Origin: Pseudomonadota bacterium
Lineage (GTDB): Bacteria > Bdellovibrionota_F > JAHFAK01 > JBDREC01
Length of the DNA: 40,118 nucleotides
Reading direction: 5' to 3'
NCBI GenBank assembly: GCA_043820105.1
Contig: JBDREC010000086.1
Location: forward strand, 1-40,118
The notes beneath the pieces were generated by a model. The model was not told where the DNA came from, searched no databases, and saw only the letters and a list, made by a program, of their open reading frames with translations. Shown one piece after another: positions 15,514 to 26,680 of the stretch. The stretch's first letter is position 1; every line of letters begins with the position of its first letter. A program made the position numbers and the translations under genes.

Positions 15514-17739
15514 ATGAGTTTTAAATTTAATAAAACATTTATTTTATCTCTTGTTTTCTGTCTAATCATTACATGTTTTACTATTTTCCTTTTGAAATTA
15601 GCTGCTTTTTCTTGGCTTGAAATGGCGGTTTTTGATTATAGATCAAGGCTTGCTACTGATTATAATGATAAATCAACTTCAAACATTTCTTTAATCACAA
15701 TTGATGAATCTTCCTTGTTGTATATGGAAAATAAAGCACAGCAACCATGGCCATGGTCTCGTGATGTTTATGTGCCTGTTCTTGGTTTTCTTAAAGAATC
15801 TGGAGCTAAAGCTATTATATTTGATATGATTTTTGATAAAAGTGATTTTAAGCGCGCTGATATTGATGGCTATGACGCTGATATAGCATTTGCAGATGCT
15901 TGCAGAGATCATAATACTTTATATCATTCTGCAATATTTAAAAAACAGGAAGGCCAATATTCATTATTGATAAATGATTTTGAAAAAAGAGAAAATACAT
16001 TTTTAGAAAAATCCAAGATTTGTATTGATAAAAGTGTTTTAAGTAAATTGCCTGAAATGAAATCAGCTATTTTACCAATAGAAGCTTTAATAAAAGCATC
16101 CAAAGCAACTGGCGTCGCGAATATTGATCATTCATATTCAAACGTGAAAGGGATTAATGAATCTATTAGTAGGGAAGTAAAATTATTATATAAATATAAA
16201 GAACAAATTATTCCTCATATGGGTTTGAGAATAGCAATGGACCTAAAGGGGATTGATTGCATTGGTCTAACAAATGATAAAATAACATTTTCTGGTGGAT
16301 CCATTCCTGTTAATATAGATCAAAAATTACTTTTAAAATGGTATGGGCTTGGTGGAACAAATAGTAATGGAAAAAGCCTTACCTTTAATTACTATTCTTT
16401 TAGGGATGTTTTATTATCAGGTGTAGCTATTTTGAGTCACGAGAAACCTTTACTTCCTATAAATTCATTCAAAGATAAAATTGTAATTATTGGTGGTACA
16501 GCTAGTCTTTTATTTGATCTGAAAAACACACCAATGGGAAGAAAGTACCCTGGCATGGAAATGCAGGCAACAATTATAAAAAATATTATGAATAATGATT
16601 TTATTTATAAAGCATCTGTTTATTATACTTTCATTGTTGTTATTTTATTGAGTTTATTTCTTTGTTTGATCTTTTTTCATATTCACAGATGGTACAGCTC
16701 TGTTTTAATTTTATTTATTACCCTAATAGGACTAACTTTTATTAATTTTACTTTGTTCATAAAACACTCTCTATTTCTTGATTATATTCCTCCTGTTTTT
16801 GCAGTGTTTTTATCTTTTATAATGGCAATTTTATATAATTTGCAAACTGAGGGTAAAAAAAGAAAAGATATTAAAAAGAAATTTCAGCACTATGTTGGAG
16901 CTTCAGTTGTTAATGAAATGATGAATAATCCTTCAAAGTTTAAGCTAGGTGGCGAAAAACGAGTGCTTACTGTAATGTTTGCTGATATCGCTGGTTTTAC
17001 TGCTATTTCAGAAAAACTTAGTCCTGAAAAGCTGTCTTCAATGTTTAATGTTATTTTTACTTATTTAACAGATATAATAATAAAGCATGATGGTACTTTA
17101 GATAAGTATATTGGTGACTGTATCATGAGTTTTTTTGGTGCTCCTGTTGCCTTTAACAATCATGCTGACATGGCTTGCAAGGCCGCGTTTTTGATGAATC
17201 TAAAAATTGGTGAACTTGCAAAAGAGTATTCAGCTGAAGCGATTCCTGGTTTGAGCATGAGAATTGGAATAAATTCAGGTGAAGTTATTGTTGGAAATAT
17301 GGGATCAAAGTATATTTATGATTATACTGTTTTGGGTGATAGTGTTAATCTTGCATCAAGAATTGAAGGTGTAAACAAAGTTTTTGGTACAGCTATTATT
17401 ATTAGTGAAGATACCAAAAAACTTTTGACTGAAAAAATAATTCTTAGAATGCTTGGATCTGTTAGAGTTAAAGGAAAAGCCAGGCCTGTTATTCTTTATG
17501 AAATCAGGGGTCTTGGTACTGCTGCTGAATATGAGCTTGAGTTAATACAAGAATTTGAAAAGGCTTTACAATATTATAAAAATAAGCAAGTGGATTTAGC
17601 CTTGCAATCATTTAGAAATGTATTATCAATAGAAGATAACGACCAGGCTACAAAATATTATATTAATTTATGCCAAAATTTGATAAGAGTTGGTTATAAT
17701 GATAAGTGGGATTGGACAATAGATTTGAAAAGCAAGTGA
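15514..17739 (+). CDS. CHASE2-domain class III adenylate cyclase
   Basis: N-terminal TM; CHASE2 motifs (ITIDE..WPWSR..D..F, TP..YPGME); three TMs; catalytic FADIAGFT, DKYIGD and DYTVLGDSVNLASRIEG. The Lys/Thr pair indicates ATP specificity. TPR-like tail. Confidence 0.93.
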   Translation: MSFKFNKTFILSLVFCLIITCFTIFLLKLAAFSWLEMAVFDYRSRLATDYNDKSTSNISLITIDESSLLYMENKAQQPWPWSRDVYVPVLGFLKESGAKAIIFDMIFDKSDFKRADIDGYDADIAFADACRDHNTLYHSAIFKKQEGQYSLLINDFEKRENTFLEKSKICIDKSVLSKLPEMKSAILPIEALIKASKATGVANIDHSYSNVKGINESISREVKLLYKYKEQIIPHMGLRIAMDLKGIDCIGLTNDKITFSGGSIPVNIDQKLLLKWYGLGGTNSNGKSLTFNYYSFRDVLLSGVAILSHEKPLLPINSFKDKIVIIGGTASLLFDLKNTPMGRKYPGMEMQATIIKNIMNNDFIYKASVYYTFIVVILLSLFLCLIFFHIHRWYSSVLILFITLIGLTFINFTLFIKHSLFLDYIPPVFAVFLSFIMAILYNLQTEGKKRKDIKKKFQHYVGASVVNEMMNNPSKFKLGGEKRVLTVMFADIAGFTAISEKLSPEKLSSMFNVIFTYLTDIIIKHDGTLDKYIGDCIMSFFGAPVAFNNHADMACKAAFLMNLKIGELAKEYSAEAIPGLSMRIGINSGEVIVGNMGSKYIYDYTVLGDSVNLASRIEGVNKVFGTAIIISEDTKKLLTEKIILRMLGSVRVKGKARPVILYEIRGLGTAAEYELELIQEFEKALQYYKNKQVDLALQSFRNVLSIEDNDQATKYYINLCQNLIRVGYNDKWDWTIDLKSK

Positions 17740-20345: not shown

Positions 20346-21719
20346 TTACTTATAATCCTTTGCACTTATACCGTATTTTTCAAGTTTTCTAAGCAGAGTC
20401 TTTTTAGGAATATTGGCGTGTTCAGCTGTTTGATTAATTTTGCCTTTAAAAGTTTTTAATGCTTTTATAATAAAATCTTTTTCGAATTGTTCTTTCATTA
20501 TCTGAAAATCTAATATTTCTTTTTTTGAATTTTCTTCATTTGTGCTTTCAGCATTTGTTAAAAATTCTGGTAATGCATTGGTAGTAAGTTCATTAGCGGT
20601 TTCAAGGATGTATGCACGTTCTATAATATTTTCAAGCTCCCTAATATTACCAGGCCAATTATATCGTTTTAAAATATTGATTACATCTTTAGATATTTTT
20701 ATAAGATTTTTTCCATGTGCTTTGTTGAATTTTTTTAAGAAGTGTTCCACAAGAAAATCAATATCTTCTTTTCTTTCACGAAGAGCTGGTAAGTAAACAG
20801 GAAGCACATTTAGTCTATAATATAAATCTTCTCTAAATTTATTTGTCTGAATAAATTCTTCTAAGTTTTGATTAGTTGCTGCAATTATTCTTACACTTGC
20901 ACCTAATTCAAGGTTTGAGCCAATTGGTGAAAAAACTTTTTCTTGAATAACTCTCAAAAGCTTTGCCTGCATTGAAATGGCTAAGTCTCCTATTTCATCA
21001 AGGAAAACTGTTCCACCCTCTGCATATTGAAACTTGCCAATTTTTCTTTGATCAGCTCCTGTAAAGGCACCTTTTTCGTGTCCAAAAAGTTCACTTTCAA
21101 TAAGATTTTCTGGAATTGCACTGCAATTAATTGCTACAAAGCGATTGTCTTTTCTTGAGCTATTGAAATGAATGGCCCTTGCGACAAGTTCCTTGCCTGT
21201 TCCACTTTCACCACGAATTAAAACGTTGGTTTCAAATTGAGTTAGTTTATCAATTATTTCAAAAACTTTTTTCATACCTTTGCTTGTTCCGATAAACTCT
21301 CTATCGCCACCGATTTTTAATATTGGAGATGATAAGGCAATGTCTCGAACCATTTCATTTGCTTCAAAAGCTCGTTCTACTATACTTTGAACATCCTCTT
21401 TTTTAACTGGTTTTGGTATGTAATTATAGGCCCCGTCTTTTATTGTTGAAACAGCATCCTTTATTGAAGCATAGGCTGTAAGCATTATAACAATAATTGA
21501 GGGATCATATTGCTTGATTTTTTTTAAGGCCTCTAAACCATTCATCTTGGGCATATCAACATCAAGCAAAACCAAGTCAAATGATTCAGCTTCAATTTTG
21601 CCAACAGCTTCTTGGCCGTCACAGGCTTCATCAAGCAGAAATTTTTCATCATTTGCAAAAGCTTGCTTAACTATTTGGCGATGGTTAGGGTCATCATCAA
21701 CAACCAGAATTCGTTTCAC
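20346..21719 (-). CDS. Sigma54-dependent response regulator, NtrC/AtoC family (REC-AAA+-Fis HTH)
   Basis: REC (VVDDD, LLDVDMP, YIPKP), GESGTGKE, ESELFGHEKGAFTGA, FREDLYYRL, WPGNIRELEN, C-terminal HTH. GGAGG RBS before GTG. Confidence 0.95.
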   Translation of the reverse strand: MKRILVVDDDPNHRQIVKQAFANDEKFLLDEACDGQEAVGKIEAESFDLVLLDVDMPKMNGLEALKKIKQYDPSIIVIMLTAYASIKDAVSTIKDGAYNYIPKPVKKEDVQSIVERAFEANEMVRDIALSSPILKIGGDREFIGTSKGMKKVFEIIDKLTQFETNVLIRGESGTGKELVARAIHFNSSRKDNRFVAINCSAIPENLIESELFGHEKGAFTGADQRKIGKFQYAEGGTVFLDEIGDLAISMQAKLLRVIQEKVFSPIGSNLELGASVRIIAATNQNLEEFIQTNKFREDLYYRLNVLPVYLPALRERKEDIDFLVEHFLKKFNKAHGKNLIKISKDVINILKRYNWPGNIRELENIIERAYILETANELTTNALPEFLTNAESTNEENSKKEILDFQIMKEQFEKDFIIKALKTFKGKINQTAEHANIPKKTLLRKLEKYGISAKDYK

Positions 21720-21875: not shown

Positions 21876-22646
21876 CTAAAGTAGCAAAATTGGAATGATT
21901 ATGCTTGCTCCAAGCAAAAGCATAATCATTGTAGAAATAAAATAAACACCTTGCTTTTCTTCGCCTGTTATTTCAACTCCATCTTTATCAAGATCTTTAT
22001 TTTGTGATATGAAGACATTATCAAATTTAAAGACATTATTGTTCGATGTATTTACTAATTTATTAAAAAAGACTTTACCTTTATATGAAACGCTAAGTTG
22101 ATAGTTGGCTCTTTTCATATTCAATAAAATAGGTGAAACACCTGCGAACTTATAGTTTATATAAATTTCCCCGTTATCTGGAAAAGTAATAAATGAACAA
22201 ATTCCAGTTTTATCACTAAAAAGCCAATTTTTATTTGTGCTAAGATATTCAGAAATACTTTGTTCAACTATTTCATTATTATAAAAATTAAAAGTTTTGG
22301 ATATATAATTACCATCTGCTTCATAGATATAAAATAAAAATGACAAATTATTATTCTGTCCAAAAACATTAAAACTATTTGCTGCATATAGTTTATCTTC
22401 AGTGAGGTTCAGCATTTCAAGAGCAGCCTTGTTTTTTATAACAATTAAATTTTTAAATATTTCTAAATCTTTTGCTATTTCATTTTGTATTGCTAATGGA
22501 ATATTGCTTCCAACAACAAAGCCTATTTGATAAGAAACATTTTGATTTATACTATAGTCAGTTGGAGGGGGTGTTTTTGCGGCACATCCGAAAAGTGAGA
22601 TAAATATTAATAAAAATAGGGTGTGCAGCAATTTATATATTTTCAT
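21876..22646 (-). CDS. Lipoprotein with PEGA-like domain and C-terminal TM helix
   Basis: Lipobox LFGC; PEGA-like ITFPDNGEIYINYKFAGVSP...YQLSV; hydrophobic C-terminus. Confidence 0.65.
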   Translation of the reverse strand: MKIYKLLHTLFLLIFISLFGCAAKTPPPTDYSINQNVSYQIGFVVGSNIPLAIQNEIAKDLEIFKNLIVIKNKAALEMLNLTEDKLYAANSFNVFGQNNNLSFLFYIYEADGNYISKTFNFYNNEIVEQSISEYLSTNKNWLFSDKTGICSFITFPDNGEIYINYKFAGVSPILLNMKRANYQLSVSYKGKVFFNKLVNTSNNNVFKFDNVFISQNKDLDKDGVEITGEEKQGVYFISTMIMLLLGASIIIPILLL

Positions 22647-23110
22647 TAGTTATTATCCTGAACGTGAGCTATCACAATTGTATCAGCGAAAATATCTCCA
22701 GCTCTTCTTCCTTGTTCATTTGTAAAAATTAAATAAATTTCAACTGCAAAAATACCTAAACCAACTGTAAAAAATAATAAAAGACCAAGCACTGGAAAGG
22801 ATAATATGGCTGCTACAATTCCTAAAGGTATGTTTCTAATTATTGATTTTTTTATATCACAATCTTTTGAGTTATCCTTTAAGTTTACAACTTGCAAATC
22901 AAACAGACGTTTTCCTGGACTTTGGCCTGATAGCATAGAATCAGAAACAAAGATAAATAATAAACCAAGTATTGATCCACCAATGCCAAAAAGTGTAATT
23001 AAAATTATGAATATGGCAATATCAACGAGTTTAGCTACAAGTCTTTTTGCAGGAAGGCCGGAATCTTGCTTTGCAATTTTTTCAATATTATTTAAAATCT
23101 TGTTTTTCAT
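22646..23110 (-). CDS. RDD family membrane protein
   Basis: KRLVAKLVD, GQSPGKRLFDLQVV, RN, GRRAGDIFADTIV. Stop overlaps the next start by 1 nt. Confidence 0.88.
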   Translation of the reverse strand: MKNKILNNIEKIAKQDSGLPAKRLVAKLVDIAIFIILITLFGIGGSILGLLFIFVSDSMLSGQSPGKRLFDLQVVNLKDNSKDCDIKKSIIRNIPLGIVAAILSFPVLGLLLFFTVGLGIFAVEIYLIFTNEQGRRAGDIFADTIVIAHVQDNN

Positions 23111-23338
23111 ATCTTACTCCTTTTTTTTGTATCATAGAGAGGCAAGATTTAATTATTAGAAAAGAAAAGTAAACGCGTGGGCAAATTAAGTCAAAGTAAA
23201 AATTATTTCAATGCGATATTATGGTCCCTATTTTTTAGGCTAATTTCATAAAAGCCTACTTTTATTCAATAAAACTTATATCTTAGAAATAAAAACATTG
23301 TATAAACAGGCACTTGAATGTTAGTGTTTTGTTTTGTT

Positions 23339-23356
23339 TTGGTATCAAATTTGCAT
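23339..23356 (+). promoter_or_regulatory. Putative sigma54 (-24/-12) promoter
   Basis: TTGGTATCAAATTTGCAT is GG(23341-42)-N10-GC(23353-54). IHF-like AATAAAAACATTG (1 mismatch to WATCAAN4TTR) at 23288-23300. Confidence 0.65.
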
Positions 23357-23429
23357 AATCAATACAATGAGCATTACAACGCGGGGGCATTATATGACTT
23401 TTTTATATTATTTAAGAGCTTACAAGGTT

Positions 23430-25583
23430 ATGAAACGATTAATTATTATCATATTTATTTACTTTCTTTTTTTCTCATCCCTATCTTTTTGCCAAGACAA
23501 TTGCATAAATTTATTTGGGAAAAATACTAAGAATATTTATATTCAGGATGTTTCTAGAGTTGATCAAATAATACTTTCATCAAATCAAGGGCAAGAAAAA
23601 GTATCACCAGAACAAATCCAAATAAATGAAGCTAGCAATTTAATGCTTGAACGAATTGCCCAGGCGGATTCTAAAAAGAAAGCAGCATTAGCTGATACTG
23701 TAAATCGTTGTGAAGTTGATATGTATAAAAGACCAGCTTTTGATGCGTTTTATGAATTAGCAGAAGCAGGTGAGTGGGTGGTAATTCTTAGATCTGATAA
23801 GAGTGATGGTGGCGGATATACCTTGGCTGAGGGTCGGGATGTAGCTGATAATGGCTTTAGGGATTTTTACTTTAAACCTTTGGAAAATCTCGCTGAGGAG
23901 CTTGGTGGCATAGCTGGATCTTTTGGTCAGGGAGATGAAGCTGGAATAATTATTGTAGGCTTAGATCCTAAAATTGTTATAGATCATGCTAATGCATTTC
24001 TTCACAAATTATCTCAAAAGCAGCCAGAAAAAGGCCTGCATTATTTGGGTAAATATTCCATGGATTATTTAACAATCAATGGTTTTAGAATTGGTATTGC
24101 TTATGGTGAAAAACCAGGAAATAAAAGAGATCAAGTTGAGTTTTATAATAATCTGCATGAACTAGCGGACTCTAGAGCTGAAAATGGAAAAATCCATGAA
24201 GTAAGTGAAGTAAATAGTTTTGATGGTCGAAATCCAATAGAAATAATAAATGAAAAATATATTGAAATAATTGAAGAGTCTTTCGTTGAGTCAGCTCGTC
24301 AGGGCAGAGTAATGTCTAGCTTACTGCATGAACATATTGATGCAAGATCAGAATTTATTCCTCGAGGTGAGGATGTTGAAGCTGAAAGAAATAGAATAAA
24401 AGATGCAATTGCAAAGTTGGGTGGAAAGGGATTTTTAATAGACGCACAGTTTGAATTTTCACCGGAAATGTATAGAAAAGTTTGGTCAATATTATTTACA
24501 CAAAATAAAGGTCTGGGTGAAGCAATACAAGGAAAAGCCAGAATAAAAGTATTCAATTCTATCTGGGATCACGCTGGTGGAGACCTTGCTATTGCTGCTT
24601 CAGCCAGAGGCCTTAAACTTTCTTTAAATAGTATTATAGGAGAAGATAATTATAAATATCCACAAGATATACTAGTAGATGGAAAAAATGAAAAAGATAT
24701 TAAAGAAGGTGATATTATTGTTTGGATGCAAGACGCTCCTGATTTATGGGCTGTCTTCATTGTAGGCAAAGACATTGATTTTCCAATGGGATTAAATGAA
24801 ACAATGAAGCAAATGGATCATCTTTTCCCTTTGGGCATAGCTGACATTCTTAATAGAAGGCAAGTTGTTGCAAAAGCCAGGGTTGTTGGCTTTGAAATAG
24901 AAGAAAATTCTAGCCTAAAAGATGCTTATGAAATGTTTGAAAATTCATTTGCTCTTATGCAAGCAGCTCATAAAGTAGGTAGAGAAAGCACAGTAGAAAG
25001 TCCTTATCTTTATACAGGTTCAAAACAAGAACTAAGAACTTTATCAAGATATCAAATGATTGATTTGACTGCTACCTGGTTTTTAAGATTTTTAAGGGAT
25101 TTGAATTCATTAACAGAAGAAGATTTTTTTGCAAAACATGGACAGGAAGACCGTGACATGGCCCCAATGTTTAGGCTTCTTTATTTTTTACAAGATAAAT
25201 TTTCAATGGTTGGATATTCAGAAAATGAGAATCCATTACTTGAAGAAAATCTTAGACCTCCTGAGATGCAAGGTTATTCGGCGGATGAGGCAAGAATAGT
25301 AATTTTTGGAAGAGGAAGTATTGACGCTATGGAAAATTTTAGAAAATTTGGTCGCTATTCTGATGATCCAGATCTTTCCATGGGTGATACTTGGCAAGTG
25401 GATCAAATAAATATTCTAAAGTGGATAGATGAGTGGTTAAATATCGCAGAAAATAAAGATGCTGTGATAGAGAGTTATTTTCAATATAGGCAAGATGCCA
25501 AATATGAGAATGAGCCAACAATAGGATTCTTATTTAGCAATAATATTACAATTGAACTAGCTACAGTTGCAGCAGCAGCCTGA
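23430..25583 (+). CDS. Exported hypothetical protein (717 aa) with two degenerate GGDEF-like domains; start revised from 23334 to ATG 23430
   Basis: MKRLIIIIFIYFLFFSSLSFC signal after an AAGGT RBS and downstream of the sigma54-like site. GGDEF-like motifs aligned by eye (see findings). Confidence 0.6.
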   Translation: MKRLIIIIFIYFLFFSSLSFCQDNCINLFGKNTKNIYIQDVSRVDQIILSSNQGQEKVSPEQIQINEASNLMLERIAQADSKKKAALADTVNRCEVDMYKRPAFDAFYELAEAGEWVVILRSDKSDGGGYTLAEGRDVADNGFRDFYFKPLENLAEELGGIAGSFGQGDEAGIIIVGLDPKIVIDHANAFLHKLSQKQPEKGLHYLGKYSMDYLTINGFRIGIAYGEKPGNKRDQVEFYNNLHELADSRAENGKIHEVSEVNSFDGRNPIEIINEKYIEIIEESFVESARQGRVMSSLLHEHIDARSEFIPRGEDVEAERNRIKDAIAKLGGKGFLIDAQFEFSPEMYRKVWSILFTQNKGLGEAIQGKARIKVFNSIWDHAGGDLAIAASARGLKLSLNSIIGEDNYKYPQDILVDGKNEKDIKEGDIIVWMQDAPDLWAVFIVGKDIDFPMGLNETMKQMDHLFPLGIADILNRRQVVAKARVVGFEIEENSSLKDAYEMFENSFALMQAAHKVGRESTVESPYLYTGSKQELRTLSRYQMIDLTATWFLRFLRDLNSLTEEDFFAKHGQEDRDMAPMFRLLYFLQDKFSMVGYSENENPLLEENLRPPEMQGYSADEARIVIFGRGSIDAMENFRKFGRYSDDPDLSMGDTWQVDQINILKWIDEWLNIAENKDAVIESYFQYRQDAKYENEPTIGFLFSNNITIELATVAAAA

Positions 25584-26096
25584 TGGTTTTATTTTTTTTA
25601 ATAGCTCACAGCCAAATGCTTCGGCTGCTTCAGGCCCTGATGCTGTAATAAATTTTCCATCAACTTCAACATCCTTTCCTGTATAATTTGCATTTTTACT
25701 TGCTAGAGCTTCTTTGGTTTCATCAGATGGATAAACGGTTGCATTTTTATTGTCCAATACTCCAGCATTGGCTAAAGTAACAGGCGCTATGCAAATAGCA
25801 GCTAGGACTTTATTCATGCTGTAAAATTCTTTTGCAAGAGTGTGAGCTTTTTCATTTTCCCAATAGCAGGAAGAACCATAGCCCCCAATAAATACAATTG
25901 CATCATAATCAGCTGAATTAATGTCATCAATTAATATATCTGCTTTGGCTGTTCCACCAAGCATTCCTGTTGCTTCTTCTAGTGAAGTTGAAGCAAGGGT
26001 AACCTGGACACCGCCGTTTTCAAGTATTTCCATAGGTTTAAAAAGTTCTTCATCCCTAAAATCTTTTGGGGCAATTATAAATAAAGCTTTTTTCAT
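25557..26096 (-). CDS. DJ-1/PfpI family protein (start probably ATG 26096)
   Basis: FRDEEL, YDAIVFIGGYG, AAICIAP nucleophile elbow, ITASGP. GAGGA RBS before MKKALF. Confidence 0.92.
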   Translation of the reverse strand: MKKALFIIAPKDFRDEELFKPMEILENGGVQVTLASTSLEEATGMLGGTAKADILIDDINSADYDAIVFIGGYGSSCYWENEKAHTLAKEFYSMNKVLAAICIAPVTLANAGVLDNKNATVYPSDETKEALASKNANYTGKDVEVDGKFITASGPEAAEAFGCELLKKIKPSGCCCNCS

Positions 26097-26263
26097 GATA
26101 TTCCTCATTATTTTGTGTTATGTATTCCTTGATTTAGTAAGTAATCTAAAATAAAGGAGAATTTGTCAATAGATTTTCAGCTAACATTTTTCTTGATATT
26201 TTGCATATGCTTTTGTTATTTGCTTGAATTCAAAATAAATTCTAATTTTATTTGAGGTTTTAT

Positions 26264-26680
26264 TTGAAAAGTTTAAGAAAAGAACTTTGGTTTGAAACAT
26301 CTAATCGTCGTGAATTTATTAATATAACAAAAAAAGTACAAGAACTTGTCGCCGAAAGTGATGTGAAAGAAGGCCTTGTTTTGGTAAATGCCATGCATAT
26401 TACAGCTTCAGTTTTTATTAATGATCATGAAAGTGGTTTATGGCAGGATTTTGAGAATTGGCTTGAAAAATTAGCTCCTGAAAAGCCTTATGATCAATAT
26501 AGGCATAATGGATATGAAGATAATGCAGATGCTCATTTGAAAAGAACAATAATGGGAAGAGAAGTCGTAGTAGCTGTTACTGATGGCCAGCTTGATTTAG
26601 GTCCATGGGAACAAATTTTCTATGGTGAATTTGATGGGAAAAGAAAGAAAAGAGTACTTGTTAAGATAATTGGTCAATAG
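26264..26680 (+). CDS. yjbQ: YjbQ/UPF0047 family protein (secondary thiamine-phosphate synthase-like)
   Basis: [34 protein letters not shown]. The GAGGT RBS favours TTG 26264 over 26252. Confidence 0.9.

Follow-up and report, generated by a model that had tools for sequence, protein, structure and literature searches.

We identified, in a 40,118-nucleotide (nt) stretch of DNA from a Pseudomonadota bacterium (GTDB lineage Bdellovibrionota_F; assembly GCA_043820105.1, contig JBDREC010000086.1), a gene whose product, P0001, very probably descends from two GGDEF domains arranged in tandem and is likely to be exported. This whole stretch is hereafter called the window; the coding sequence occupies 23430..25583 on its + strand and specifies 717 amino acids plus stop. 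Our preferred reading, which we hold tentatively and at somewhat less than an even chance, is that P0001 is an exported single chain that joins a degenerate GGDEF pair to a helical tail and binds nucleotides in another cell. The evidence comes from comparison with a paralog in the same genome (an assembly of 3.8 Mb in 113 contigs, 93% complete), from a structure model of domain 1, and from a signal-like N-terminus followed by a five-residue tag that recurs in sister proteins.

Direct searches with P0001 did not reveal its family: Pfam gave no family at E<=10, NCBIfam two chance-level rows, the PDB sequences one row at E 2.7 and none better, and PADLOC nothing, including nothing resembling Cas10 or the cyclic oligonucleotide-based antiphage signalling system (CBASS). 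The assembly contains a single paralog, P0002, a protein of 1144 amino acids encoded on contig C45 (locus L004). BLASTP aligned the two proteins across both domains (E=9e-11, 116 of 492 columns identical), and phmmer over all frames of the genome matched P0002 with P0001 at E=1.2e-4; identity is 24-26%, with the motif positions conserved. Domain 2 of P0002 matches the Pfam GGDEF model (PF00990) at E=2.9e-4 with 21.1 bits, below the cut-off of 23.8, and TIGR00254 at E=0.0032 with 17.2 bits against a cut-off of 37.4; neither protein reaches these curated thresholds. With a GGDEF model built from the genome's own domains, P0002 was the first match after the true GGDEF proteins (E=0.0035), and both of its domains touch profile positions 34-73.

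Profile-profile alignment places both domains in the family. The GGDEF profile comprised 35 sequences, 30 from loci of diverse genomes and five from this genome (the family is present in 38 of the 41 genomes sampled for it), and the queries were two-row alignments of residues 89-262 of P0001 with 614-803 of P0002 for domain 1, and of residues 298-518 with 821-1025 for domain 2. hhalign gave a probability of 92% for domain 1 (P=6e-7, score 45.5, 138 columns) and 78% for domain 2 (P=1.9e-5, score 37.7, 135 columns), with all motifs in the expected register in both alignments. Column shuffles never reached these scores (0 of 60 per domain; maxima 23.8 for domain 1 and 22.9 for domain 2), and reversed queries scored 12.3 and 13.2. 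An earlier comparison with six GGDEF domains of the same genome was weak (P=0.0059 and 3.8e-4) and is superseded by the 35-sequence profile. The reverse search of the genome with hidden Markov models of the two domains did not recover the canonical GGDEF proteins significantly (best E=0.2, for domain 2), the same domain profiles met only chance rows among PDB sequences (E>=0.17), and no match was seen between the two domain pairs (P=0.19). An alignment that combined all domains in four rows misplaced domain 2 and was set aside.

Fold-level support for domain 1, independent of the paralog, is provided by the ESM Atlas, which contains the exact P0001 sequence, although its single-sequence model is of low confidence (predicted local distance difference test, pLDDT, 0.49; predicted template modelling score, pTM, 0.39 for the whole protein). 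Residues 89-262 of this model align to the GGDEF part in 10 of the 10 listed clusters, with template modelling (TM) scores by query of 0.74-0.79 over 156-165 residues, and 28 of the 30 named ESM feature hits for this segment carry GGDEF (top score 0.91). With the full-length chain, all 10 structural neighbours listed are GGDEF-containing clusters as well, at TM scores of only 0.24-0.34. The AlphaFold2 models were unusable, both for whole P0001 from the two-row alignment (pLDDT 33.3, pTM 0.24) and for the P0002 tandem (pLDDT 39.0), and Foldseek with the P0002-tandem model returned no match in the PDB at E<=0.001. The order of helices and strands in domain 1 of the AlphaFold model fits GGDEF and was given no weight in our analysis; padding the alignment with canonical GGDEF sequences for folding was avoided as circular.

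We then mapped the P0001 domains onto 33 canonical GGDEF domains. Domain 1 (residues 89-262; 23694..24215, + strand; delimited by hhalign, the ESM Atlas and the residue map) keeps the beta1 metal-binding Asp (D123), the base-binding Asp (D140) and Q167-G-D-E-A171. Its counterpart of the GG[DE]EF hairpin is GQGDEA (residues 166-171; 23925..23942, + strand; hhalign and residue map), in which the acids D169 and E170 are retained and the first G and the F are altered. The GDE is invariant between P0001 and P0002, and all three metal acids are kept in domain 1 of both proteins. What domain 1 lacks are four residues invariant in the 33 canonical domains, namely the Lys of FK (G128 here), the base-binding Asn (T131), the His (R136) and the Arg before the hairpin (S164). 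At its RxxD site the Arg column falls in a gap and the Asp column holds Gly, and near its C-terminal end A250 stands at the Lys column, with the Gly and Arg columns unaligned.

Domain 2 (residues 298-518; 24321..24983, + strand; hhalign and paralog matches), which has an insertion of ~30 residues before the hairpin, shows the reverse pattern. Its nucleotide-binding helix, K373...N376...H381..G384-D385 (24546..24584, + strand), aligns with FKxxNDxxGHxxGD, whose columns are 97-100% conserved across the canonical set, so that the Lys, the Asn, the His and the base-binding Asp are all in place. The metal Asp is replaced by G368, the Arg before the hairpin by W432, and the hairpin reads PDLW, the second acid being lost (L439). 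According to the residue map, K425-E-G-D428 at the RxxD columns and Q434..P437-D-L-W440 at the GGDEF columns together span 24702..24749 (+ strand); at the same columns P0002 has R-G-V-D and RPDTF. Further downstream, the C-terminal Lys column is lost to H514, and G517 and R518 occupy the Gly and Arg columns. Across the two paralogs, domain 2 always keeps the Asn, the His and the Gly of Gly-Asp, while the Lys and the Asp of that pair are found in P0001 and RxxD in P0002, and in any one domain only between 6 and 9 of the 20 invariant GGDEF columns remain.

As judged from these alignments, the degeneracy of the two domains is complementary. Neither holds the residue set of an active diguanylate cyclase, that is, binding residues and acids within one domain, domain 2 being without the metal Asp and the hairpin acid pair (G368, PDLW). 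In a GGDEF enzyme, every half-site depends on base, phosphate and metal ligands of its own, and all of these residues serve one half-site; complementarity across two domains therefore does not by itself restore catalysis. Since neither domain has the full catalytic set, nucleotide binding is likelier than the making of cyclic di-guanosine monophosphate (c-di-GMP), and binding or sequestration of a ligand, or the formation of at most one phosphodiester bond, appears more likely than canonical c-di-GMP synthesis. Genuine nucleotide cyclase activity of P0001 would be unlikely. At the same time, the surviving residues are functional positions and are common to paralogs that have diverged this far, which argues for some retained nucleotide-related role.

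These results bear on the original prediction, which had been made from the letters of the window alone. The open reading frame and all motifs that it quoted are found at the positions it gave, including GQGDEA at 23925-23942, and its proposal of two tandem GGDEF-derived domains is borne out by the paralog, the shuffle-calibrated profile alignments and, for domain 1, the ESM model. Complementary degeneracy, its central observation, is likewise seen in the residue map, with D123, D169 and E170 in domain 1, and K373, N376, H381, G384 and D385 but G368 and L439 in domain 2. Its expectation that structure prediction and Foldseek would return two such folds finds tentative support for domain 1, whose low-confidence ESM model superposes on GGDEF, and none in the Foldseek search with the P0002 tandem. 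The inference it drew, a self-sufficient cyclase, is not supported, given the loss in domain 1 of the residues at the G128, T131, R136 and S164 columns and the incomplete catalytic set of either domain.

P0001 is, on all searches made, confined to its own genome. A word-indexed search of 5.8 billion clusters and a HMMER search of 1.84 billion representative proteins each returned P0001 itself only, and a two-row profile of P0001 and P0002 found no relative beyond the genome. None of 40 other genomes matched P0001 at E<=0.01, and none of three genomes of the same class matched the profile of both proteins at E<=1; the lineage is thinly sampled, the genome search having yielded two genomes of the same order and one more of the same class. 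The C-terminal 585 residues of P0002, which were searched separately, have no homolog outside the genome either. The search for homologs and paralogs that the original prediction suggested thus yields one paralog. P0001 is, by these comparisons, a fast-evolving gene that is found in its own genome only and is maintained, because its frame stays open for 717 codons in DNA of 32% G+C and because the motif positions are conserved between diverged paralogs.

The N-terminus of P0001 (residues 1-21; 23430..23492, + strand) resembles a signal peptide, with MKR preceding a 17-residue hydrophobic core. It reaches 2.27 on the Kyte-Doolittle scale in a 19-residue window and is the only segment at or above 1.4 in the whole protein. 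The n- and h-regions are clear, and candidate cleavage positions, placed by eye, follow S19 or C21. P0002 has a signal-like N-terminus too and no other segment at or above 1.4; several moderately hydrophobic stretches between its residues 337 and 535 (0.96-1.37) are not classifiable. The genome encodes four secretins, and TssC, FHIPEP and VirB4 were not found in the 93% complete assembly (no marker of flagellar or type III secretion systems, of type VI secretion or of VirB4). Together with the pilin-like genes described below, this suggests that passage through Sec and then a secretin would be the available export route.

Directly after the hydrophobic core stands CINLF (residues 25-29; 23502..23516, + strand), an instance of a tag, C[IL][DN]LF, that is common to sister proteins encoded across the genome. 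Fifteen proteins carry C[IL][DN][LV]F immediately behind a hydrophobic core, 24-34 residues from their start. The pattern occurs 31 times in the 4648 frames of at least 90 amino acids, 14 times after an N-terminal hydrophobic core; the fifteenth protein, on contig C80, falls short of the hydropathy threshold only. A model of signal plus tag scored its 15 training sequences at 31.8-46.1 bits, and the next match in the genome, at 16.5 bits, is a sixteenth protein (C99, near 86845) in which the tag follows a 23-residue spacer. Besides the window, the tagged proteins are encoded on contigs C4, C6, C10, C12, C39, C41, C68, C80, C90, C96, C99, C102 and C110 (loci L005-L018). The position preceding the Cys holds N, P, Q, A, D, E or V, too variable for the tag to be a lipobox, and C[IL][DN]LF may represent a new tag for sorting or processing.

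Apart from the tag, relatedness is confined to three of the 15 proteins. By domain content, the set includes a PPP/ApaH-type phosphoesterase, a HAD hydrolase and a lone GHKL ATPase; Zn peptidase, methyltransferase and small effector-type kinase families are matched weakly, and nine of 14 have no Pfam match. Because most tagged genes stand behind sigma-54 sites and several tagged proteins carry enzyme domains that are usually cytoplasmic, membership in this set favours a secreted, effector-like role for P0001. At least the tagged ATPase and the GGDEF pair of P0001 would need nucleotides, and the periplasm is without them, so action inside another cell is favoured over action in the periplasm; for P0001 itself we regard such action as possible, with rather more doubt than confidence. 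The kinase match, in a tagged protein of 494 amino acids (L014, C96:22575-24056), is to a small type-III-effector kinase family at E=0.0015 and 18 bits against a cut-off of 200, and serves as a lead only.

Most of the tagged genes also share a promoter type. The P0001 gene is preceded by TGGTATCAAATTTGCA (23340..23355, + strand; -24 TGG / -12 TTGC), the sole exact match in the window to TGGYAYN5TTGCW, the consensus for sigma-54 promoters. The site is 39 nt from ATG 23394 and 75 nt from ATG 23430, upstream of both. RpoN is encoded on contig C8, so that consensus, spacing, sigma factor and a nearby activator are all present for this putative promoter. An exact site 40-90 nt upstream is found for nine of the 15 tagged genes, and a site with one mismatch for three more. 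The sigma-54 regulon of the genome is very large: there are 208 exact sites, with 11.4 expected from base composition, and 139 genes, as approximately delimited, have an exact site near their start. By a crude hydropathy rule, 113 of these 139 (81%) appear to bear a signal, as opposed to 1068 of 2667 other genes (40%). At the P0002 locus, sigma-54-like sites precede three consecutive genes; six matches with at most one mismatch were counted where 1.5 were expected, a number reached in none of 200 shuffles.

Several further observations concern this regulon. The two genes upstream of P0002 (L004, C45 4201-8377, minus strand) encode a 593-amino-acid protein that belongs to no known family and starts like a lipoprotein, and a 705-amino-acid protein with a thioredoxin domain, each preceded by a sigma-54-like site. 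Many paralogous genes resembling type IV pilins also stand behind such sites, for example at C19:1191, C88:41867 and on C30, C36, C92, C104 and C108, and their prepilin-type N-termini are near-identical. The genome has 33 Sigma54_activat matches, nine of which lie in open frames of ~1950-1990 amino acids that would encode giant activator proteins.

The remaining features named in the original prediction are likewise seen in the sequence. It had described one N-terminal signal, no sensor domain, a C-terminus of ~200 amino acids of unfamiliar type and a sigma-54-like promoter; hydropathy shows no second hydrophobic segment, no sensor domain is recognisable by Pfam, the C-terminal region matches neither Pfam nor NCBIfam, and the promoter match is exact, RpoN being encoded in the genome and an NtrC-type activator gene lying 1.7 kb upstream. 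Its suggestion that P0001 acts outside the producer gains support from membership in the C[IL][DN]LF set.

If P0001 works as an exported protein, the steps might be as follows. Sigma-54 RNA polymerase would transcribe the gene from the exact site at 23340-23355, probably activated by the neighbouring NtrC-type regulator, and translation would begin at ATG 23394 or 23430. The N-terminal signal, a recognisable sequence pattern, would carry the chain through Sec, and the mature protein would begin at or just before C-I-N-L-F, which, being common to 14-15 unrelated proteins, could act as a sorting or processing signal for secretin-based release. Outside the producer, most plausibly inside another nucleotide-holding cell, the two domains would form a pseudo-dimer, in which domain 2 would use K373, N376, H381, D385 and K425xxD428 to hold a guanine nucleotide or a ligand resembling c-di-GMP, and domain 1 would supply the Mg-binding acids D123, D169 and E170. 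The complete version of this scheme, a secreted single-chain GGDEF pseudo-heterodimer that makes or captures a guanine (di)nucleotide in a target cell as part of a tagged repertoire of ~16 proteins under a very large sigma-54 regulon, is decidedly unlikely to hold in every part.

A number of findings weigh against reading P0001 as an exported nucleotide-binding GGDEF pair. Taken singly, its domains do not match the 35-sequence profile significantly (P=0.16 for domain 1 and 0.026 for domain 2), whereas those of P0002 do (P=4e-5 and 6e-6), and the sequence case for P0001 is therefore transitive, via its paralog; P0001 also lies outside the top 40 rows with the own-genome GGDEF model. The assignment thus leans on one paralog and a low-confidence ESM model, and domain 2 is without structural support, the AlphaFold models being poor and Foldseek empty. 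Searches gave only P0001 itself or the paralog, and no ortholog was found that would show conservation of the key residues. The 17-residue core could be an uncleaved anchor. As for the tag, P0002 lacks it, its model met only internal matches in unrelated proteins, and none behind a signal peptide, in the three further genomes of the class, and its connection with secretion is one that we infer. Finally, at least one sigma-54 match arose in 20 of 100 whole-window shuffles, so that the promoter site alone is not significant over the whole window.

Among the alternatives, P0001 could be an active, self-sufficient single-chain cyclase or nucleotidyltransferase in which domain 2 would place the acceptor nucleotide and catalysis of bond formation would fall to domain 1, so that an unusual (di)nucleotide, linear or cyclic, would arise in a prey or host cell. 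Such a division of labour would recall Cas10 (Palm1/Palm2) and the C1/C2 class III cyclases, which also combine two palm-type domains in one chain with the metal acids in one of them; P0001 matches no such family in Pfam or PADLOC, and the resemblance is one of layout, not of membership. The three metal acids and the invariant GDE that both paralogs keep in domain 1, the helix for base and phosphate binding retained in domain 2, the tandem layout conserved in both proteins and the place of P0001 in an effector-like tagged set are all consistent with activity, and the ESM feature hit at rank 30 is a cluster in which 20% of members carry the Cas10 palm2 family, a lead only. Yet domain 1 lacks the invariant Lys, Asn, His and Arg, with its C-terminal Lys/Arg columns unaligned, each half-site of a GGDEF enzyme requires a full set of ligands, the AlphaFold models offer no usable domain geometry, and PADLOC found nothing like Cas10 or CBASS. 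We therefore judge an active enzyme of this kind improbable. A second alternative keeps the export and discards the nucleotides: the GGDEF folds would be scaffolds only, with a structural, adhesive or protein-binding role outside the cell or in its envelope. The small number of surviving invariant columns, the lack of nucleotides in the periplasm, the very fast divergence and the lack of homologs elsewhere would all fit, but what both paralogs have kept are the functional residues and not a random subset, and a pure scaffold is in our estimate no likelier than an active cyclase.

Alternatively, the N-terminus could be an uncleaved anchor, or the protein might not be exported at all, so that the domains face the producer's own cytoplasm and P0001 is an ordinary degenerate-GGDEF receptor or scaffold for c-di-GMP. 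PelD and PopA are degenerate GGDEF receptors of this kind. Like them, domain 2 of P0001 has lost the catalytic motif while keeping nucleotide contacts and what may be an RxxD-type site, KEGD in P0001 and RGVD in P0002. Known members are cytoplasmic or cytoplasm-facing, whereas P0001 has Lys in place of the Arg, carries an export signal and pairs this domain with a GGDEF-like domain that keeps its acids. The class, in which c-di-GMP is bound at an RxxD site, is well known. CmrA, a degenerate GGDEF/EAL effector, is a further example (10.64898/2026.08.21.746235). The eight canonical GGDEF domains of the genome indicate that c-di-GMP is in use, the hydrophobic core is long at 17 residues, and the stretches at 337-535 of P0002 might be membrane helices that place its GGDEF pair inside. 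However, the MKR charges precede the core, and by the positive-inside rule the remaining chain would lie outside; P0001 has no second hydrophobic segment to return it, and a tag right after the core in 15 unrelated proteins resembles a processing or sorting site and not a juxtamembrane linker. These points make a cytoplasm-facing receptor rather unlikely. It is far less probable still that P0001 is a decaying or functionless orphan frame, as the lack of homologs among 1.84 billion representative proteins might suggest, since 717 codons are open in AT-rich DNA, the paralog has the same two-domain layout with conserved motif positions, and promoter, Shine-Dalgarno-like element and signal peptide are arranged as in the sister genes.

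An exported, nucleotide-binding GGDEF pair would differ in several respects from the canonical diguanylate cyclases (PF00990), of which PleD and WspR are the textbook cases. The domains of P0001 follow the same motif order, with an NRRxF-like turn, the beta1 Asp, the nucleotide helix, the hairpin, the SxGxA strand and the AD helix. In contrast, the protein stays below every curated threshold, has two domains per chain that each miss a different part of the active site, carries a signal peptide instead of cytoplasmic sensor domains, and has no inhibitory site in domain 1. To our knowledge, GGDEF domains have been treated as strictly cytoplasmic enzymes that must dimerise. Among the titles and abstract openings of the literature matches listed, none describes the export of a GGDEF-GGDEF protein or the translocation of a GGDEF effector. 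Secreted toxins of the class II adenylate cyclase type share the concept of a cyclase that works only in the cytoplasm of another cell; their fold and family are different, and complete active sites and known delivery routes are theirs. Likewise, the lipoprotein export signal of Bacteroidota and the RxLR and PEXEL motifs of eukaryotic pathogens are, like C[IL][DN]LF with its five residues at a fixed distance, short motifs that follow the signal peptide on unrelated proteins; C[IL][DN]LF itself matches none of these and was seen in this genome only.

Were this reading correct, an exported one-chain GGDEF pair with split degeneracy would be a new use of the fold, and P0001 could be a delivered effector that binds or makes nucleotides, or a c-di-GMP sponge. 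If P0001 were instead a cytoplasm-facing receptor, it would belong to a known class, as an extremely diverged but otherwise ordinary member. The C[IL][DN]LF tag may be easier to pursue, as the proteins that it singles out in this one genome are unrelated, enzyme-like and sigma-54-controlled; the tagged set provides a candidate sorting signal and a list of candidate effectors for a lineage with almost no studied members.

Additionally, two more degenerate GGDEF domains score above the Pfam cut-off (C49:36894-37301 and C99:42787-43200, with 44.9 and 37.1 bits). The translated segments show no GGDEF/GGEEF motif, and the one on C99 lies within a 648-amino-acid open frame that also carries a sigma-54 activator domain.

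Regarding the gene itself, the + strand frame at 23334-25583 is open for 749 codons, 717 of them from ATG 23430, the start assumed in the original prediction. That frame is correct, but translation probably starts 12 codons upstream, at the in-frame ATG 23394, because a GGGGG Shine-Dalgarno-like element (23383-23387, + strand) ends 6 nt before it and the same arrangement recurs before the sister genes, where a GGGG(C)AT element lies 6-10 nt ahead of the tagged reading frames; element and putative start together span 23383..23396 (+ strand). The longer N-terminus leaves the signal-like character unchanged. The G+C content of the gene, 0.32-0.35, equals that of its surroundings. Its C-terminal region of ~200 amino acids (24984..25580, + strand) is predicted to be helical and aligns with the tail of P0002 in patches only.

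No terminator-like hairpin was found in 23000-26300, a scan for sigma-70 promoters was uninformative (17 promoter-like sites, 14.9 expected), and a search of the promoter region for repeats as activator sites yielded nothing convincing. Upstream, and divergent from P0001 on the - strand, lie genes for an RDD-family membrane protein (22646-23110) and a lipoprotein-like protein with a weak PEGA match (21876-22646). Behind them, also on the - strand and 1.7 kb from the P0001 gene, is the NtrC-type response regulator and sigma-54 activator (20346..21719; Pfam Response_reg, Sigma54_activat, AAA_lid_14 and HTH_8), which by its proximity is a candidate regulator of P0001. Farther along, a CHASE2-sensor class III nucleotide cyclase at 15514-17739 is followed by a protein with SH3 and M48 peptidase domains and a small RTX-repeat protein (to 20290); the cyclase is a second nucleotide-signalling gene near P0001, with no visible link between the two. 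At its 3' end, the P0001 gene overlaps the end of a convergent DJ-1/PfpI family gene by 27 nt (25557-25583).

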